A DNA stretch of 64,000 bases from Actinomycetes bacterium. GTDB taxonomy: Bacteria > Actinomycetota > Coriobacteriia > WRKU01 > WQUG01. Location: NCBI GenBank assembly GCA_031272275.1, contig JAISUC010000012.1:2052-66051 (forward strand), in the 5' to 3' direction. The translations under genes and the position numbers were made by a program. Every line of letters begins with the position of its first letter. The first letter of the stretch is position 1. The notes below the pieces were generated by a model. The model was not told the DNA's origin. It saw only the letters and a list, made by a program, of their open reading frames with translations, and did no database searches. This document shows, piece after piece, positions 4,795 through 62,149 of this stretch.

Positions 4795-4956
4795 TCATCA
4801 AATCAAAAGCCGACCTTCCAACCCTATCAGCACAAGCGTTCTCATACAAGCGAACAAGTTGTGTTTTCTTCACCAATCGGGCGAGGCGGGGAAGCACGTC
4901 CCGGCGTCCGCGTAACCGGCGGAAACGACTGCAATTGCGGGACATGCGCACCCGAC

Positions 4957-4971
4957 GGGACGCACTCCCCC
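4957..4971 (+). repeat. Family 1 dispersed 15-mer GGGACGCACTCCCCC, sitting in the loop of a hairpin (stems CATGCGCAC 4943-4951 / GTGCGCATG 4979-4987)
   Basis: Read directly. Intergenic between rhuM and the DUF2779 gene. Confidence 0.7.
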
Positions 4972-5006
4972 CCTGTGTGTGCGCATGTGGCCGCGGTCGA
5001 AGTGGG

Positions 5007-6515
5007 TTACCCGTCGGTGCGGGCGGTGACTTCCCGCAGTTTTTGCCAGATGCGGACCATCGCCAGCGTGTCCAGGCGACAATATGCCAGCAGCTGGGCG
5101 CGGATGGCGGCTCGTTCTGCAGGTGGGTATTCGCACAGGCGCGCAAAGGCTTCCATGGCCCCGGTGCCGTCGTGAATACCGTCAAGTCGGGTGTAGTCCA
5201 GCTCGGGATCATCGGGAAACAGGGCCGGCAATACCACCTTGATGGAAGACGAACCGCCCATGGCCTTGTCGTAATACCAGCCGTTTCTGAACGGATCCTC
5301 CAGGTCGTACATATTGTCTGCGATGTCTGTCAACTTGATCGCCAGATCGGGGAAGGCTTTCGCCAGTCCCCTTAACACAGTTTTCTCAAAGGCTGCATGA
5401 TAAGCCACGGTGCAGGCTCCCGGCGCAATGTCGGCACAGAGCCTTTCTGCCACGGCGCGCCTGGGGTCGGTGCCCTCCGTTGCCAGAAACTCGCGGTGTT
5501 CGGGTTCGCGATCGGGGTCATGCACGATATGCAGCGAATACTGCGAGGGAATCTGCTGATAGGGCTTGACGCCGTCAAAGGGCGGAATCGCGGGACCGAA
5601 GGTCTCGAAGTCTAAAAAGTACAGCGGCAGACGCAGTTGACTTAAGAAATCCCGAATCGACTCTTTGTCGATGTGTGGCGGCAAATCATCCAGGTATGAA
5701 TATATCTGCATCAGTTGCTGTGACGTGAACTGTTCCGAATGCGCGCGTGCATCCTCGAACGAGACAATGCCACGGTCAAATAGGGGGTCCAGTTTTGCCG
5801 GACCAATTTTCCGGATGTCGAACACGCAGGGCGCGGGAACATCGCGCCAGCACCACGAACGAAATCCGCATTCATGCGGTTTAAAGCACTGTTCCCCGAT
5901 GCGTCGGTTTGGTTCATCCGGGTCGGCGAGGATGCGTTGCAGAGTCTCTATGCCACGTGATACTGAATCCTGCATCGCCCGGACTTCCTCCGTCCGGTCG
6001 TCCAAAACAAACAGCTCTTGCAGGTCCAGTTCGCCTGAGCGTACGTATTTCTTATTGAGATGCATCAGGCTGACGGTCTCAACTGTCAGCCCACAGTGTT
6101 CCAAAACCCAGCACTGATACGCCATGTCATCCAGATACTCGGGCTTGTATTCCGATGCTGACTTTACCTCGATGATGTCCACGCCATCGGCACGCACGCG
6201 CAAAATGTCGACCATACAAAGATTGCCCCGATAGGCAAACGTGGCCTCGCAAATGGTGGGAACGCCCCGGGCCAGCAATTGTTGGGTCTGCTCGACCATA
6301 CCCGCATAGTTCTCGCGGTCATAGGGCACCTCGACGTAGTCGCCGAAATAACCCATGGCCAGGTCACCGACCTCATTTCCCGTCTGAACGCGCGCCTGAT
6401 CGACGACCGAATCGTCATAACACTCCGGCTTGTTTTTCTGCATCCAGAGCATTTTGGGGCACTGTACCCCCCGGCAGTATTTTGACTTCGACAGACCCAT
6501 ATACCGCACCGCCAT
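5007..6515 (-). CDS. Cas4-like PD-(D/E)XK nuclease with four-Cys cluster plus C-terminal DUF2779-like domain
   Basis: Has the VDIL...DIIEVKS nuclease motif and four-Cys cluster residues (ECYDD and C-x5-C-x5-C in CFKPHECGFRSWC). The LYFLDFETFGPAIPPFDG region resembles DUF2779 proteins. Confidence 0.7.
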   Translation of the reverse strand: MAVRYMGLSKSKYCRGVQCPKMLWMQKNKPECYDDSVVDQARVQTGNEVGDLAMGYFGDYVEVPYDRENYAGMVEQTQQLLARGVPTICEATFAYRGNLCMVDILRVRADGVDIIEVKSASEYKPEYLDDMAYQCWVLEHCGLTVETVSLMHLNKKYVRSGELDLQELFVLDDRTEEVRAMQDSVSRGIETLQRILADPDEPNRRIGEQCFKPHECGFRSWCWRDVPAPCVFDIRKIGPAKLDPLFDRGIVSFEDARAHSEQFTSQQLMQIYSYLDDLPPHIDKESIRDFLSQLRLPLYFLDFETFGPAIPPFDGVKPYQQIPSQYSLHIVHDPDREPEHREFLATEGTDPRRAVAERLCADIAPGACTVAYHAAFEKTVLRGLAKAFPDLAIKLTDIADNMYDLEDPFRNGWYYDKAMGGSSSIKVVLPALFPDDPELDYTRLDGIHDGTGAMEAFARLCEYPPAERAAIRAQLLAYCRLDTLAMVRIWQKLREVTARTDG

Positions 6516-6587
6516 TCCGTAATTGTCGTGATGATCGTAATGTCCGTAATGCCCGTACTGTCCGCTACGCCCGTAACGCCCTGCGTG
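6516..6587. repeat. Eight tandem 9-bp repeats (plus-strand consensus YCCGTAATG; CATTACGGR on the gene strand) immediately upstream of the DUF2779 start codon
   Basis: tccgtaatt gtcgtgatg atcgtaatg tccgtaatg cccgtactg tccgctacg cccgtaacg ccctgcgtg. The array stays in frame with the ORF but contains no canonical start codon before the upstream stop. Confidence 0.7.
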
Positions 6588-59829: not shown

Positions 59830-60942
59830 ATGAAAACACACACGAAAACACCGGCGAAAACACCGCTCGGAACACGCCTGCTCTTGACCGCAATCGCTGC
59901 GCTGGTTGCGCTGCTCATCGGGGGAATCGGGGCGGGTACGTCCCCGGCCTTTGCCACAGAAACGACCGCGACTGCAACGGAAACCACCCCCGTGGCGCGC
60001 CCCGACATCAGCATCGTTTGCGTCGGGGACATGACTTTCAGTCGCAGCGGCGGCGTGCGTTTCGGGAAACCGACCACCCTGCTGAAGCGGGTACGCTCGC
60101 AGCTACGTGCCGGCGATATCACCTACGGCAACCTGGAAACGCCGCTCTCCGGACGCGGTAAGCGGGCGGCAAAGACCTTTACGTTTCGCGGTCCGACCTC
60201 GGCGGCGGCGGCTTTGGCGGCAGCCGGGTTCGATGTGGTGTCAGTCGCGAACAACCACAGCCTGGACTATGGGCGCGTCGCGTTCAGTGACACGCGCAAG
60301 GCGCTTGCCCGGGCAAAGGTCCTGGCGGCGGGTGGCGGCGCCAATAAAAAGGCCGCGTGGAAACCGGTCGTCATCAAACGCAAAGGTGCGACCATCGCGT
60401 TTTTCGCTTTCAGCGAAATTACGCCCGCGTCCTTTGCGGCGACTGCGAAACGTTCGGGCTGCGCCTATACGCAAAACTTCGCCGCCGTCAAACGCGCCGT
60501 CAAAGCCGCCGCGAAAAAATACGATTACGTGGTGGTCGGCATGCACTGGGGGATAGAGCTCCGCGCCAATCCGACCGCACGACAGGTGCGCGAGGGGCGT
60601 GCGTTGATTCGGGCGGGTGCTGCGGCGGTACTGGGCAGCCACCCGCACGTTCTGGAAGGTGTGGAGTATTACAAGGGCGGCCTGATCGCCTATTCGATGG
60701 GCAATTTCGTGTTCAGCCCCGGCAGTGCTGCCGGCCGCGATACTGCGATTTTGAAACTGACCTTGACCGATACCGGCGTGAAATCGGTGACGGCACGACC
60801 GGTGCGTATCGTCGGCTTCACGCCGAAGGTTCAGAAGGGGGCGTCCGGCAAACGCATCCTGAAGCTGTTAAAGGTGCGCTCAAAGGCGCGCGGCACCCGC
60901 GTCACCATCCGGGGCAACACGGCGACCTTTAAGAAACGCTAG
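59830..60942 (+). CDS. capA: CapA/PgsA-family metallophosphatase-like protein (poly-gamma-glutamate synthesis/capsule-type), secreted
   Basis: Signal peptide. VCVGDMTFS, GNLETPLS and VVSVANNHSLDYG motifs. Confidence 0.8.
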   Translation: MKTHTKTPAKTPLGTRLLLTAIAALVALLIGGIGAGTSPAFATETTATATETTPVARPDISIVCVGDMTFSRSGGVRFGKPTTLLKRVRSQLRAGDITYGNLETPLSGRGKRAAKTFTFRGPTSAAAALAAAGFDVVSVANNHSLDYGRVAFSDTRKALARAKVLAAGGGANKKAAWKPVVIKRKGATIAFFAFSEITPASFAATAKRSGCAYTQNFAAVKRAVKAAAKKYDYVVVGMHWGIELRANPTARQVREGRALIRAGAAAVLGSHPHVLEGVEYYKGGLIAYSMGNFVFSPGSAAGRDTAILKLTLTDTGVKSVTARPVRIVGFTPKVQKGASGKRILKLLKVRSKARGTRVTIRGNTATFKKR

Positions 60943-61031
60943 AAACGTCGCACCTCAATCGCCCCTCAATCCCCATCGGGGCGGCTTGCAATGCGCTACA
61001 CTGGTACGGTTACGCTATGAAAGGAACAGCA

Positions 61032-62099
61032 ATGTCACTGATTGAACAACTGACGGCGCTCGGCGCCGACGGGCTGGCGTCCATCGCTGCGGCGGACAGC
61101 GCCGCGGCACTTGATGCCGCCCGTGTCGACCTGCTGGGTAAAAAGGGACGCCTGACCGGCATCCTGCGCGGGTTGGGTGCCCTGCCTGCCGACGAACGTC
61201 CGGCGGTGGGTGCCGCTGCAAACCGGGTCAGGACCGCCATCGAGGACGCGCTGACCACGCGCAAGGCGGCACTGGATGCCGCAGCACTGGACGCGCAACT
61301 GGCGGCGGGTACCTTGGACATTACGCTCCCCGGTCGTGCCCGTCCCATCGGCGCACAGCACCTGATCAGCCGGATTCGCGACGAGATCGTCGAGGTCTTT
61401 TGTGGTATCGGCTACACGGTCGCAGAAGGACCCGAGGTCGAGCTGGACTTTTACAACTTCACGGCGCTGAATCACGAGCCGCAACATCCCGCACGCAGCG
61501 CGTCCGACACGTTTTATGTGGTCGACCGCAGCACGGATGCCGAAACCTGGACGGGTCCCGAACCGTCGGATGTATTGATGCGTACGCACACCTCACCTGT
61601 GCAGATTCGCACGATGGAGCACACGAAACCGCCGATTTACATTCTGGCACCGGGTAAAGTGTATCGCCGCGACGTGCCCGACCCCACACACCTGCCGCAG
61701 TTCACGCAGATGGAGGGTCTGGTGGTCGACCGCGACGTGACCTTTGCCGATCTGCGCGGGACGCTGGACTATCTGTGTCGCGAGATCTTCGGCTCGCAGG
61801 TTCGGACGCGCTTTCGTCCGCACTTCTTCCCCTTTACCGAGCCCTCGGCAGAGGTCGACGTCAGCTGCAACGTGTGCGGCGGGACGGGGTGTCGCACCTG
61901 CAAGGGAACCGGCTGGATCGAGATTCTGGGCTGCGGCATGGTGGACCCGAACGTGTTTGCCGCGGTCGGACTGGACCCCGAGGAATGGAGCGGTTTCGCA
62001 TTCGGCCTGGGAATCGACCGGATTGCGGCGTTGCGCTATGACTTGCCCGACATCCGCATGCTGGTCGAGGGCGACATGCGGTTCTTGCGGCAGTTTTAG
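61032..62099 (+). CDS. pheS: Phenylalanyl-tRNA synthetase alpha subunit
   Basis: Class II motifs, including FRPSYFPFTEPS and GFAFGLGIDR. AAAGGAA RBS before MSLIEQL. Confidence 0.95.
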   Translation: MSLIEQLTALGADGLASIAAADSAAALDAARVDLLGKKGRLTGILRGLGALPADERPAVGAAANRVRTAIEDALTTRKAALDAAALDAQLAAGTLDITLPGRARPIGAQHLISRIRDEIVEVFCGIGYTVAEGPEVELDFYNFTALNHEPQHPARSASDTFYVVDRSTDAETWTGPEPSDVLMRTHTSPVQIRTMEHTKPPIYILAPGKVYRRDVPDPTHLPQFTQMEGLVVDRDVTFADLRGTLDYLCREIFGSQVRTRFRPHFFPFTEPSAEVDVSCNVCGGTGCRTCKGTGWIEILGCGMVDPNVFAAVGLDPEEWSGFAFGLGIDRIAALRYDLPDIRMLVEGDMRFLRQF

Positions 62100-62134
62100 C
62101 ACCCGACGGCGTCCGGCCGTAGGCAGCAGCGTGC

Positions 62135-62149
62135 GGGACGCACTCCCCC
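62135..62149 (+). repeat. Family 1 15-mer GGGACGCACTCCCCC in the pheS-pheT spacer
   Basis: Read directly. Confidence 0.7.

Follow-up and report, generated by a model that had tools for sequence, protein, structure and literature searches.

A near-invariant 15 bp word dispersed through actinobacterial DNA: a possible counterpart of DNA uptake sequences

Results

Copies of the 15-mer in the window

The window, a stretch of 64 000 nucleotides of actinobacterial DNA, contains a complete Tad/Flp pilus locus (31.8–40.6 kb). Dispersed through the window is a 15 bp word, GGGACGYACTCCCCC. Twelve exact copies were found, each at the position and on the strand given by a first-pass annotation of the same DNA, as against 0.00 expected from 100 dinucleotide shuffles. 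The sample is small, 72 kb from the source organism and 28 kb from its nearest relative; a self-trained gene map was used to place the copies.

The C-type copy at 4957–4971 (+), which reads GGGACGCACTCCCCC and then CCT, lies in a tandem intergenic region (IGR), 35 nt past the stop codon of a DUF2779 gene, and is antisense to both neighbouring genes. The C-type copy at 7433–7447 (+) occupies the divergent IGR between a DUF6847 gene (6847–7305, −) and an AAA+ ATPase gene (7589–9769, +). For the one at 10749–10763 (+), the coding start is 394 nt away and a cobalamin riboswitch (10804–11024) follows 41 nt downstream; a sigma-70-like TTGAAA-N17-TACAGT lies 2 nt downstream of it. Further C-type copies are found at 50808–50822 (+), between recN and ureA, where TTGTTA-N17-AATAAT begins 3 nt downstream, and at 62135–62149 (+), in the operon-internal IGR of pheS and pheT, 35 nt past the pheS stop codon. 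T-type copies are found in divergent IGRs at 17408–17422 (+; IGR 17339–17589) and 25118–25132 (−; between an amidohydrolase gene and a ClC channel gene), the latter preceded by AGGTTT; at 22403–22417 (−), between a gene 10 nt away (21739–22392, −) and tRNA-Asp (22553–22629, +); and, antisense, at 53615–53629 (−) between ureC and amt. The other T-type copies are coding: 14482–14496 (+), in the last 92 nt of the gene at 13671–14573 and 58 nt ahead of the start (14555) of a double ABC ATPase gene; 39745–39759 (−), antisense in the last 100 nt of a 690 aa Tad-locus gene (37775–39847), 84 nt from the next start; and 45268–45282 (+), in the acidic C-terminal tail of xseB (44971–45342), where it is read in frame as G-T-Y-S-P, 25 nt ahead of the dxs start.

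About four decayed copies accompany the 12 exact ones. The degenerate copy that had been reported at 9789–9803 (+; GGGACGCACTCCTCA) is accepted here: it is intergenic, 20 nt past the stop codon of the AAA+ gene, and keeps the 11 nt core intact. Three others were absent from the first-pass annotation, namely 4145–4159 (+; one mismatch, GGGACGTGCTCCCCC), which lies within a RhuM-like gene and is probably a decayed member; 4888–4902 (−; two mismatches), an intergenic inverted partner of the copy at 4957 (19 nt arms, 79% complementary, 46 nt apart); and 12765–12779 (−; one mismatch, GGGACATACTCCCCC), in the IGR at 12715–12883. A second reported degenerate copy, at 47829, is probably a coding look-alike: it falls within conserved FtsJ/TlyA coding sequence (W-T-Y-S-P), and a relative without the repeat has almost identical bases at its orthologous codons (L154, 12446).

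It is apparent that the word stands out by a wide margin from all over-represented 12–14-mers of the window. Allowing up to two mismatches, 19 matches were obtained, as against 0.35 expected, and exact copies outnumber one-mismatch copies by 12 to 2. The copies are near-invariant at 14 of the 15 positions, position 7 being C in six of the exact copies and T in six. The 11 nt core occurs exactly 14 times; its one-mismatch matches number only four, near chance (2.9 expected in total). The conserved unit is 15 bp with sharp edges, or approximately 22 bp if the weak, asymmetric, T-rich 3′ flank is counted (T at +7 in 10 of the 12 copies), and its internal dyad spans only 4 bp. No long flank is conserved across the 12 exact copies. 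The first-pass annotation was right that some copies share extended flanks (GTGTTTTC on the 3′ side at 7433 and 25118, TGTG at 14482 and 17408). As a control, 114 chance matches to the 15-mer in unrelated genomes were examined (844 kb of flanking sequence), and none had a second copy.

A variant of the word in the nearest relative

The closest relative, another metagenome with a dxs 63% identical, carries a variant word, TGGACGCACTCC, in five exact and three one-mismatch copies within 27.8 kb (0.18 expected). The core GGACGCACTCC is kept and both edges differ, the only two changes being G to T at position 1 and C to G at position 13. These copies occupy both strands. Five of the eight fall within genes, at residues that are poorly conserved, and one of these is mid-gene in glmM. 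Density is similar in the two lineages, while the positions of the copies turn over: among about five comparable junctions at syntenic loci only the xseB tail is shared, and there the relative has a copy in its own dialect and in the orientation opposite to that of the window copy. The word is missing from 65.7 kb of sequence from three relatives that are more distant. The dialect, the unshared positions and the absence from the distant relatives together mark the 15-mer as a lineage-specific DNA word. The relative's copies in pheS and pheT fall in non-conserved residues and show no indel against the window orthologues; these two copies therefore arose by point substitution, which is how copies arise in the relative at least.

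Such lineage specificity also fits a Chi-like signal for recombination or 'self-DNA', which an end-processing helicase-nuclease (AddAB, AdnAB or RecBCD) would recognize on single-stranded DNA. In the window there is approximately one copy per 5 kb, which resembles the spacing of Chi in Escherichia coli, and a mild strand excess (8+ / 4−). That excess is not significant, however, and known Chi sites are 5–8 nt long and lie mostly in genes, whereas the present word has 15 nt and a strong intergenic bias. An explanation of this type is considered highly improbable.

Placement relative to genes

Nine of the 12 exact copies are intergenic, although intergenic DNA makes up only 12.7% of the window (binomial P=1.3e–6), and the three coding copies lie at gene ends (last ~60–100 nt), 25–84 nt before the next start. 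The placement described in the first-pass annotation thus holds. The enrichment it gives upstream of start codons is right as a description: 11 copies have their nearest start codon at 10–180 nt, the exception being that at 10749.

An array of sites bound by some abundant protein of the chromosome (nucleoid-associated, architectural or a very global regulator) would account for several of these features and is the main rival to the explanation favoured below, possible though somewhat doubtful. An asymmetric site of ~22 bp would be bound wherever present, and selection would keep sites mostly near gene starts. All 12 copies lie less than 400 nt upstream of a start codon; each IGR with the exact word has a single copy; four of seven divergent (promoter-only) IGRs have a copy as against none of six convergent ones, a difference that is not significant; those at 10749 and 50808 adjoin a good −35/−10 pair at 2–3 nt; the spot in the xseB tail upstream of dxs is occupied in both organisms; and independence of orientation is expected of a DNA site. 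On the other hand, five copies are operon-internal (pheS|pheT, xseB|dxs, ureC|amt, ECF and tad), the genes downstream are functionally unrelated, near-invariance on this scale is unlike that of regulon sites, the relative has most of its copies within genes, and positions mostly differ between the lineages. Among the 12 copies no fixed relation to a promoter or terminator was found, the distance to promoter-like elements not being constant. The first four of these objections speak against a classical operator; the earlier suggestion of a regulator or nucleoid-protein site stays viable in the broader sense of a word in DNA that some protein reads. The enrichment near start codons is equally well explained by the survival of copies only in permissive DNA.

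RNA structure and mobility

The hairpins noted earlier around two copies are real. The copy at 4957 occupies the 27 nt loop of a perfect 10 bp hairpin (4942–4951/4979–4988; fold z=−2.1), and that at 53615 the centre of the 21 nt loop of a perfect 11 bp hairpin (53601–53611/53633–53643; z=−3.4). They are, however, the only two among the 12, and their stems are unrelated. No canonical terminator or perfect inverted pair holding a copy was seen in the window, the closest cases being the imperfect 4888/4957 pair and a single hairpin of motif plus T-run (53613–53632).

A cis-acting RNA element of 5′ leaders and intercistronic regions, such as a processing, attenuation or protein-binding signal, might take the form of a small GGGA-CGYAC-UCCC hairpin with a U-rich tail. 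Consistent with this, a sense reading towards a downstream gene is open to nine of the 12 copies once divergent IGRs are included, the motif is followed by a T-rich tract, and both dialect differences fall on would-be paired positions (G-C to U-G). Yet in unambiguous tandem contexts there are five sense and three antisense copies, and in the relative three sense and five antisense, including all three exact copies of one locus (L153), where the pair would be C-A. The 12 copies have no common fold (mean z ~−0.7), none matches an Rfam family, and a 4 bp stem could by itself achieve little. An RNA element is accordingly very unlikely, and the structured RNA with compensating stems proposed in the first-pass annotation is not borne out.

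A REP/MITE-like miniature mobile element or its footprint, copied between genes by a transposase whose gene lies elsewhere in the genome, might likewise produce the intergenic bias, the dominance of exact copies and the inverted pair. In two cases an otherwise perfect hairpin has a copy exactly in its loop, as though inserted there; deletion of the 15-mer at 53615 leaves the 11 bp stem with a 6 nt loop. Copies also occur (two exact, three decayed) in a low-G+C island beside tRNA-Ser that looks horizontally acquired, an observation that speaks against an uptake function as well. The unit is nevertheless just 15 bp, with unconserved flanks and neither a REP-type palindrome nor a target-site duplication; the window genes that were scanned against Pfam or had precomputed Pfam hits (all but a few small ORFs) include no transposase and no Y1/RAYT domain; and the relative's two comparable coding copies exchange residues one for one. 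Mobility is thus unlikely, and the REP/BOX-like element suggested earlier is not supported.

Discussion

The 15-mer is a lineage-specific word at the level of DNA. It is neither an RNA motif nor a mobile element of the REP/MITE kind, and it is no classical operator. The data rule out action through RNA structure, fixed promoter geometry or transposition, and its copies persist where they do least harm: between genes, in C-terminal tails and in stretches of protein that are poorly conserved.

By analogy, the word may be a recognition tag that works like the uptake sequences DUS and USS, to which we assign a probability of approximately 35%. It would be read genome-wide as double-stranded DNA, in either orientation, by a sequence-specific recognition machinery. 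As in those systems, a receptor on a DNA-uptake filament would prefer word-carrying DNA, transformation with DNA of kin would raise the word to many evenly spaced copies (molecular drive), and its dialects would confine exchange to close kin. The candidate filament is the Tad/Flp pilus encoded in the window, a link that is conjecture. Transformation dependent on Flp pili has been described in an actinobacterium, Micrococcus luteus (PMC4322843), uptake sequences gather between genes and in coding regions that are poorly conserved (bioRxiv 10.1101/2025.10.24.684340), and dialects of DUS have been described (PMC3630211).

The prior for an uptake function is low. This is because uptake sequences are, to our knowledge, known from two proteobacterial families only. 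DUS (Neisseriaceae, 12-mer) and USS (Pasteurellaceae, 9-mer core with AT-rich flanks) are the closest known systems. Like them, the 15-mer is short, near-invariant and hugely over-represented on both strands, has more exact than one-mismatch copies, is enriched between genes and where proteins are poorly conserved, adjoins a weakly conserved T-rich flank, and has related lineages with dialects sharing a core. Its spacing, too, is more even than random (smallest gap 2476 nt; permutation P=0.0005–0.0016). Unlike them, it occurs in the Actinomycetota (a Coriobacteriia-like metagenome-assembled genome), at a density about five-fold below that of classical DUS/USS. It is rarely found in terminators or inverted pairs, in which about half of DUS/USS are embedded, and its sequence is unrelated, the AGTGCG that it shares with the USS core being trivial. 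The candidate filament is not a type IVa pilus, and comEA, comEC and dprA are not in the window, which counts against uptake.

REP/BIME elements and RAYT-mobilized REPINs are alike in occurring in both orientations, with one inverted pair here, and in either case a genome should hold short extragenic copies by the hundred. The 15-mer differs in lacking the 20–40 nt imperfect palindrome and GTAG-type head, no RAYT gene was seen among the annotated genes of the window, and the relative's word lies in genes, with substitutions at both comparable coding copies. HIP1, the highly iterated octameric palindrome of cyanobacteria, is likewise a lineage-specific DNA word, abundant on both strands and tolerated in coding sequence, but it is a perfect 8 bp palindrome and much denser, whereas the present word is longer, asymmetric and, in the window organism, mostly intergenic. 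The chromosome-organizing sites parS (ParB), NBS (Noc), SBS (SlmA) and matS (MatP) are also specific, dispersed sequences, of 12–16 bp, each read by one protein and acting independently of local genes. Those sites are palindromic, number ~5–100 per genome and lie in defined macrodomains; the 15-mer is asymmetric and, by naive extrapolation to a genome of a few Mb, would number several hundred.

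Abundance and sequence definition of the repeated word

The 15-mer GGGACGYACTCCCCC is present in 12 exact copies in the window, whereas none is expected from dinucleotide-preserving shuffles; an exact-match count confirmed the coordinates and strands that the first-pass annotation had assigned to all 12. Position 7 of the word is C in six copies and T in the other six, and the remaining 14 positions are invariant. When up to two mismatches were allowed, 19 matches were observed against 0.35 expected, and a k-mer census of the window identified the word as by far its most over-represented 12–14-mer. 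The 11-nt core, GGACGYACTCC, occurs in 14 exact copies; one mismatch yields four further matches, a number near chance (2.9 matches expected in total). Since the core is mostly exact and its one-mismatch copies are near chance, the word family is sharply defined, with perfect copies dominant. Its density is approximately one per 5–6 kb in the 72 kb sampled from this organism, and an 8 kb extension of the window to the right contained no further copy.

Conservation ends abruptly at the edges of the 15-bp unit. A weak T/G-rich stretch lies 3′ of the word, with T at +7 in 10 of the 12 copies, and the short shared flanks described earlier are indeed present: GTGTTTTC and TGTG are each common to a pair of copies. 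Decayed members were accepted at 4145, 4888, 9789 and 12765. The third of these had been proposed previously as a degenerate copy, together with a site at 47829 that was rejected as a look-alike in conserved FtsJ/TlyA coding sequence (W-T-Y-S-P). The latter was left out of the count because nearly the same bases are found at the orthologous codons (12446) of L154, a relative that lacks the repeat. The FtsJ/TlyA motif concerned, G-W-T-Y-S-P-I-K-G-P-K-G (47829–47843 in the window), is encoded by TGGACGTACTCC(CCG), which mimics the word, including the T-prefixed form found in another relative. The copy in the tail of xseB is translated in the same frame as this look-alike (G-T-Y-S-P).

Placement of the copies

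The window derives from an uncultured metagenome-assembled genome (MAG) labelled 'Actinomycetes bacterium'. In a set of 5.8 billion proteins, the best non-identical homologue of its dxs product (MDR1775474.1) has only 63% identity and derives from Coriobacteriia-like MAGs. Genes were mapped using the gene calls of an almost identical Logan assembly and a self-trained codon-usage caller. It is apparent that the copies are concentrated between genes: nine of 12 are intergenic, though only 12.7% of the window is so (binomial p = 1.3e-6). The three coding copies (14482, 39745 and 45268) all lie in the final 60–90 nt of a gene, that at 45268 encoding G-T-Y-S-P in frame within the acidic tail of xseB. 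Copies were found in four of seven divergent, five of 24 tandem and none of six convergent intergenic regions, a difference that is not significant per nucleotide. Five copies are internal to operons (pheS|pheT, xseB|dxs, ureC|amt, the ECF module and the tad operon), and the genes neighbouring the copies share no common function. In tandem contexts, in which the copies can be oriented unambiguously with respect to transcription, five copies are sense and three antisense. The exact copies avoid one another: the smallest gap, 2476 nt, has a probability of 0.0005 for 12 random positions within permissive DNA and of 0.0016 for a uniform draw.

Eight copies are on the forward and four on the reverse strand, a ratio that, coming from a single 64-kb window, is uninformative on replichore skew. 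Chi-like signals are words of 5–8 nt that are co-oriented with replication. The 15-nt length of the present word does not fit such a signal, and this explanation is considered very improbable.

A candidate island (1927–10700) of lower G+C content (0.55–0.57) adjoins a tRNA-Ser gene (1834–1926). It has the appearance of an acquired defence or mobile region, with genes encoding an ADP-ribosyltransferase, a RhuM-like protein, DUF2779 and DUF6847 proteins, an AAA+/AAA_lid_6 ATPase and an XRE regulator. It still holds two exact and three decayed copies of the 15-mer.

A variant of the word in the closest relative

The dxs neighbourhoods of four relatives (L153, L154, L155 and L156) were compared with the window. 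The closest is L153 (ENA sample ERZ27257304; dxs 63% identical), in which the order pyc-accC-asp23-nusB-xseB-dxs-ftsJ-nadK-recN is syntenic. This contig contains three exact and two one-mismatch copies of TGGACGCACTCC in 21.9 kb, where 0.14 would be expected. The MAG of this relative carries the accessions MCL2525953.1 and MCL2536840.1. Another contig of that sample, L157, in which the order pheS-pheT-arcA-argF matches the right flank of the window, contains two exact copies and one with a single mismatch in 5.9 kb, against 0.04 expected. The two organisms carry different dialects, GGGACGYACTCCCCC in the window and TGGACGCACTCC(GCC) in its nearest relative. The core of the latter, GGACGCACTCC, is that of the C-type word of the window; the changes are T for G at position 1 and G for C at position 13, with a looser 3′ end. 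No copy was found in the 65.7 kb examined from L154, L155 and L156 (dxs 61–59% identical). Two 12-mers that occur three times in L154 (TGGTCAGACTCC and AGGTAGAGCACT) were considered as a further dialect and rejected as too weak.

The density in the relative is approximately one per 3.5 kb (28 kb sampled), with three of its eight copies on the forward and five on the reverse strand. Five are intragenic, in glmM (mid-gene), a hisS-like gene, the xseB tail, pheS (codons ~18–22) and pheT (codon ~633). When the pheS and pheT copies were aligned with the window orthologues, they were found to occupy non-conserved residues with no insertion or deletion; as judged from this alignment, both arose by substitution and not by insertion. 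The xseB tail upstream of dxs is the sole comparable junction with a copy in both organisms, and the two copies are in opposite orientations. Those at pheS|pheT, nadK|recN and arcA|argF are each confined to one lineage.

Three intergenic copies, at non-orthologous loci of the two organisms (25118 in the window, 2278 in L153 and 5103 in L157), are preceded by the prefix AGGTTT (25112–25117, 2293–2298 and 5097–5102, respectively); on their 3′ side, the copies in the window and L153 have a G-(T/C)-T-rich flank in common as well. An intergenic subtype of ~30 nt, longer than the word itself, is hinted at by these shared flanks. A 15-kb ENA contig, P0122, was second by bit score in the pheS comparison and was discarded as a close relative, its protein being assembly-duplicated and only 56–63% identical; the 549-aa 'pheS' product has an internally duplicated catalytic domain, which is probably an assembly artefact.

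Searches outside the clade

As a negative control, the 15-mer was compared with 185,579 species genomes. At least 114 single chance matches were found in unrelated genomes, and the flanks of the 114 matches listed (844 kb) contained no second copy. In a metagenome collection excluding the source contig, the 18-mer GGGACGCACTCCCCCCCT gave five single chance matches, none in multiple copies; viral contigs gave 29 single matches and no multi-copy contig. Across these scans and the loci of the relatives, no organism with multiple copies was found beyond the sister lineage. A literature search for the word sequence and for Coriobacteriia motifs returned nothing relevant.

RNA, regulatory and mobile-element interpretations

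The copies at 4957 and 53615 had been described as lying in hairpin loops with compensating stems. The hairpins are present, with perfect 10- and 11-bp stems; the notion of compensation was abandoned, as only two of 12 copies are so placed and the ten other exact copies have no flanking inverted repeat. Structured cis-regulatory RNAs have a covariation-supported secondary structure and a fixed orientation to the regulated gene. Folds of 85-nt windows around the copies gave z values from +1.1 to −3.4 (mean ~−0.7) and no common structure, orientation is mixed, and no Rfam family was matched at any copy, either at the gathering threshold or at E ≤ 5. The structured RNA motif suggested by the first-pass annotation is therefore disfavoured, and an RNA element appears improbable.

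A promoter module (an UP or activator site, or a −35 element) was rejected following a PWM scan, in which a strong promoter lay directly downstream of only two of the 12 copies. These two, 10749 and 50808, are directly followed by a sigma-70-like −35/−10 pair; the ten others have nothing comparable at any fixed distance, and ECF-type and sigma-54-type spacings, read by eye, did not fit. A terminator-like hairpin with a T-run is scored at a single copy (53613–53632), the others overlapping no terminator-like site, and there is one inverted pair, which is imperfect (4888/4957). The reverse complement, GGGGGAG/GGCGGAG, is found before the recN ATG of the relative and close to the start of ClC in the window; for most copies the spacing is wrong for a Shine–Dalgarno sequence, or absent, and this reading was also rejected. 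Operators occupy the promoters of a coherent gene set at defined promoter distances and are degenerate in sequence. A transcription-factor regulon was rejected in view of the unrelated neighbours, the five operon-internal copies, the promoter-like element at two of 12 and the near-invariant sequence; positions are, moreover, mostly unconserved in the relative.

REP and REPIN elements are imperfect palindromes of 20–40 nt that form stem-loops, are strictly extragenic, arise by insertion and are associated with a RAYT gene. The REP/BOX-like identity proposed earlier is contradicted by the 15-bp unit, its internal dyad of only 4 bp (GGGA/TCCC), the unconserved flanks and the lack of target duplication. 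No transposase, including Y1, is found among the annotated genes of the window. The intragenic location of five of the relative's eight copies, and the lack of an indel at the two comparable with orthologues, also argue against a REP-like mobile element, which is considered unlikely.

Other features of the window

A 12-nt sequence, GAAAACACCGGC, lies in tandem just upstream or at the N-terminus of a PGA_cap/CapA-like gene (59884–60942), with two copies in the window (59844–59867) and three in the Logan assembly of SRR14710912 (L122, 8800–8835), which is otherwise identical; its copy number is polymorphic between assemblies of one strain. A cobalamin riboswitch (10804–11024, 115 bits) begins 41 nt after the copy at 10749, with a good promoter, TTGAAA-N17-TACAGT, at 10766–10794. 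It precedes genes for an unannotated 518-aa protein, a DUF4430 protein and an ECF-type transporter module, which probably form a B12 uptake operon. The Rfam 5_ureB_sRNA match at 51870–52167 (reverse strand, 150 bits) lies wholly within the urease alpha-subunit coding sequence; its most likely source is homology to Helicobacter ureB as a protein-coding gene rather than an antisense sRNA. Finally, TCAGCGCGGTCTAA forms a local triple repeat (569–582, 604–617 and, inverted, 716–729) around the convergent intergenic region 573–729; this repeat has no relation to the 15-mer and may form a bidirectional terminator.

Interpretation and comparison with known systems

The repeat is a word at the level of DNA, specific to its lineage and free of any orientation rule. 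Its copies survive in permissive DNA, and density is kept in spite of a turnover of their positions between lineages. Such a word would be recognized sequence-specifically, and the recognizer would exert either selection or drive in its favour. Copies that are invariant, evenly spaced, symmetric between strands and placed in permissive DNA, with dialects between lineages, make up a population-genetic signature like that of uptake words, and by analogy with the DNA uptake sequences of the Neisseriaceae (DUS) and Pasteurellaceae (USS) we favour an uptake tag, with a probability of roughly one in three. To our knowledge, sequence-specific DNA uptake is known only in those two families. The prior for this reading is low, and the copies inside the acquired-looking, low-G+C island beside tRNA-Ser count against it.

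The word could instead belong to a dense array of sites for an abundant chromosomal protein, a possible explanation to which we give somewhat less credence. It would then define a new site family, unusually specific and dense, that could lead to the protein, for instance through a DNA pull-down using the 22-mer GGGACGTACTCCCCCGTGTTTT. The weight left after the readings discussed here falls to something not yet conceived.

An uptake-type word would point to a Tad-type pilus receptor. A full Tad/Flp pilus locus is present in the window (31803–40583). It encodes RcpC/CpaB, a TadZ-like ParA ATPase, CpaF/TadA, two TadB/C proteins and two 73-aa Flp pilins, as well as several small pseudopilin-like ORFs and a 690-aa protein without a Pfam domain. 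That this pilus serves as the transformation filament is conjecture; in Micrococcus luteus, a Tad/Flp-type filament mediates transformation (PMC4322843). The fuller proposal, that the word is the first uptake-signal 'self-DNA' tag outside the Proteobacteria, read by Tad/Flp-pilus transformation and biasing exchange to kin in an uncultured Coriobacteriia-like clade, is speculative and, as a whole, rather unlikely. An uptake function would suggest more than one origin of kin-biased transformation, one of them in a deep-branching uncultured actinobacterial lineage. Genome-wide recognition words are a known kind of feature; the phylum, the sequence and the possible Tad-based machinery would be new. 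Under either explanation, the clade can be binned and tracked in metagenomes with the word and its dialect as practical markers, which could also help to reveal recent gene flow to or from the clade.

Approximately half of DUS and USS sit in terminators, and even spacing has been reported for the USS of H. influenzae. Unlike these sequences, the present word is rarely found in terminators or inverted pairs, and its density is approximately five-fold below that of classical DUS and USS. Uptake sequences are known to build up between genes and in coding DNA of poor conservation (bioRxiv 10.1101/2025.10.24.684340), and DUS have dialects between related taxa (PMC3630211). The word resembles them in its massive over-representation with perfect copies dominant, in its occurrence on both strands without dependence on the direction of transcription, and in its even spacing and T-rich flank. 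It is also like them in occupying intergenic DNA and variable protein residues, by substitution in the pheS and pheT genes of the relative, and in having lineage dialects around a common core.
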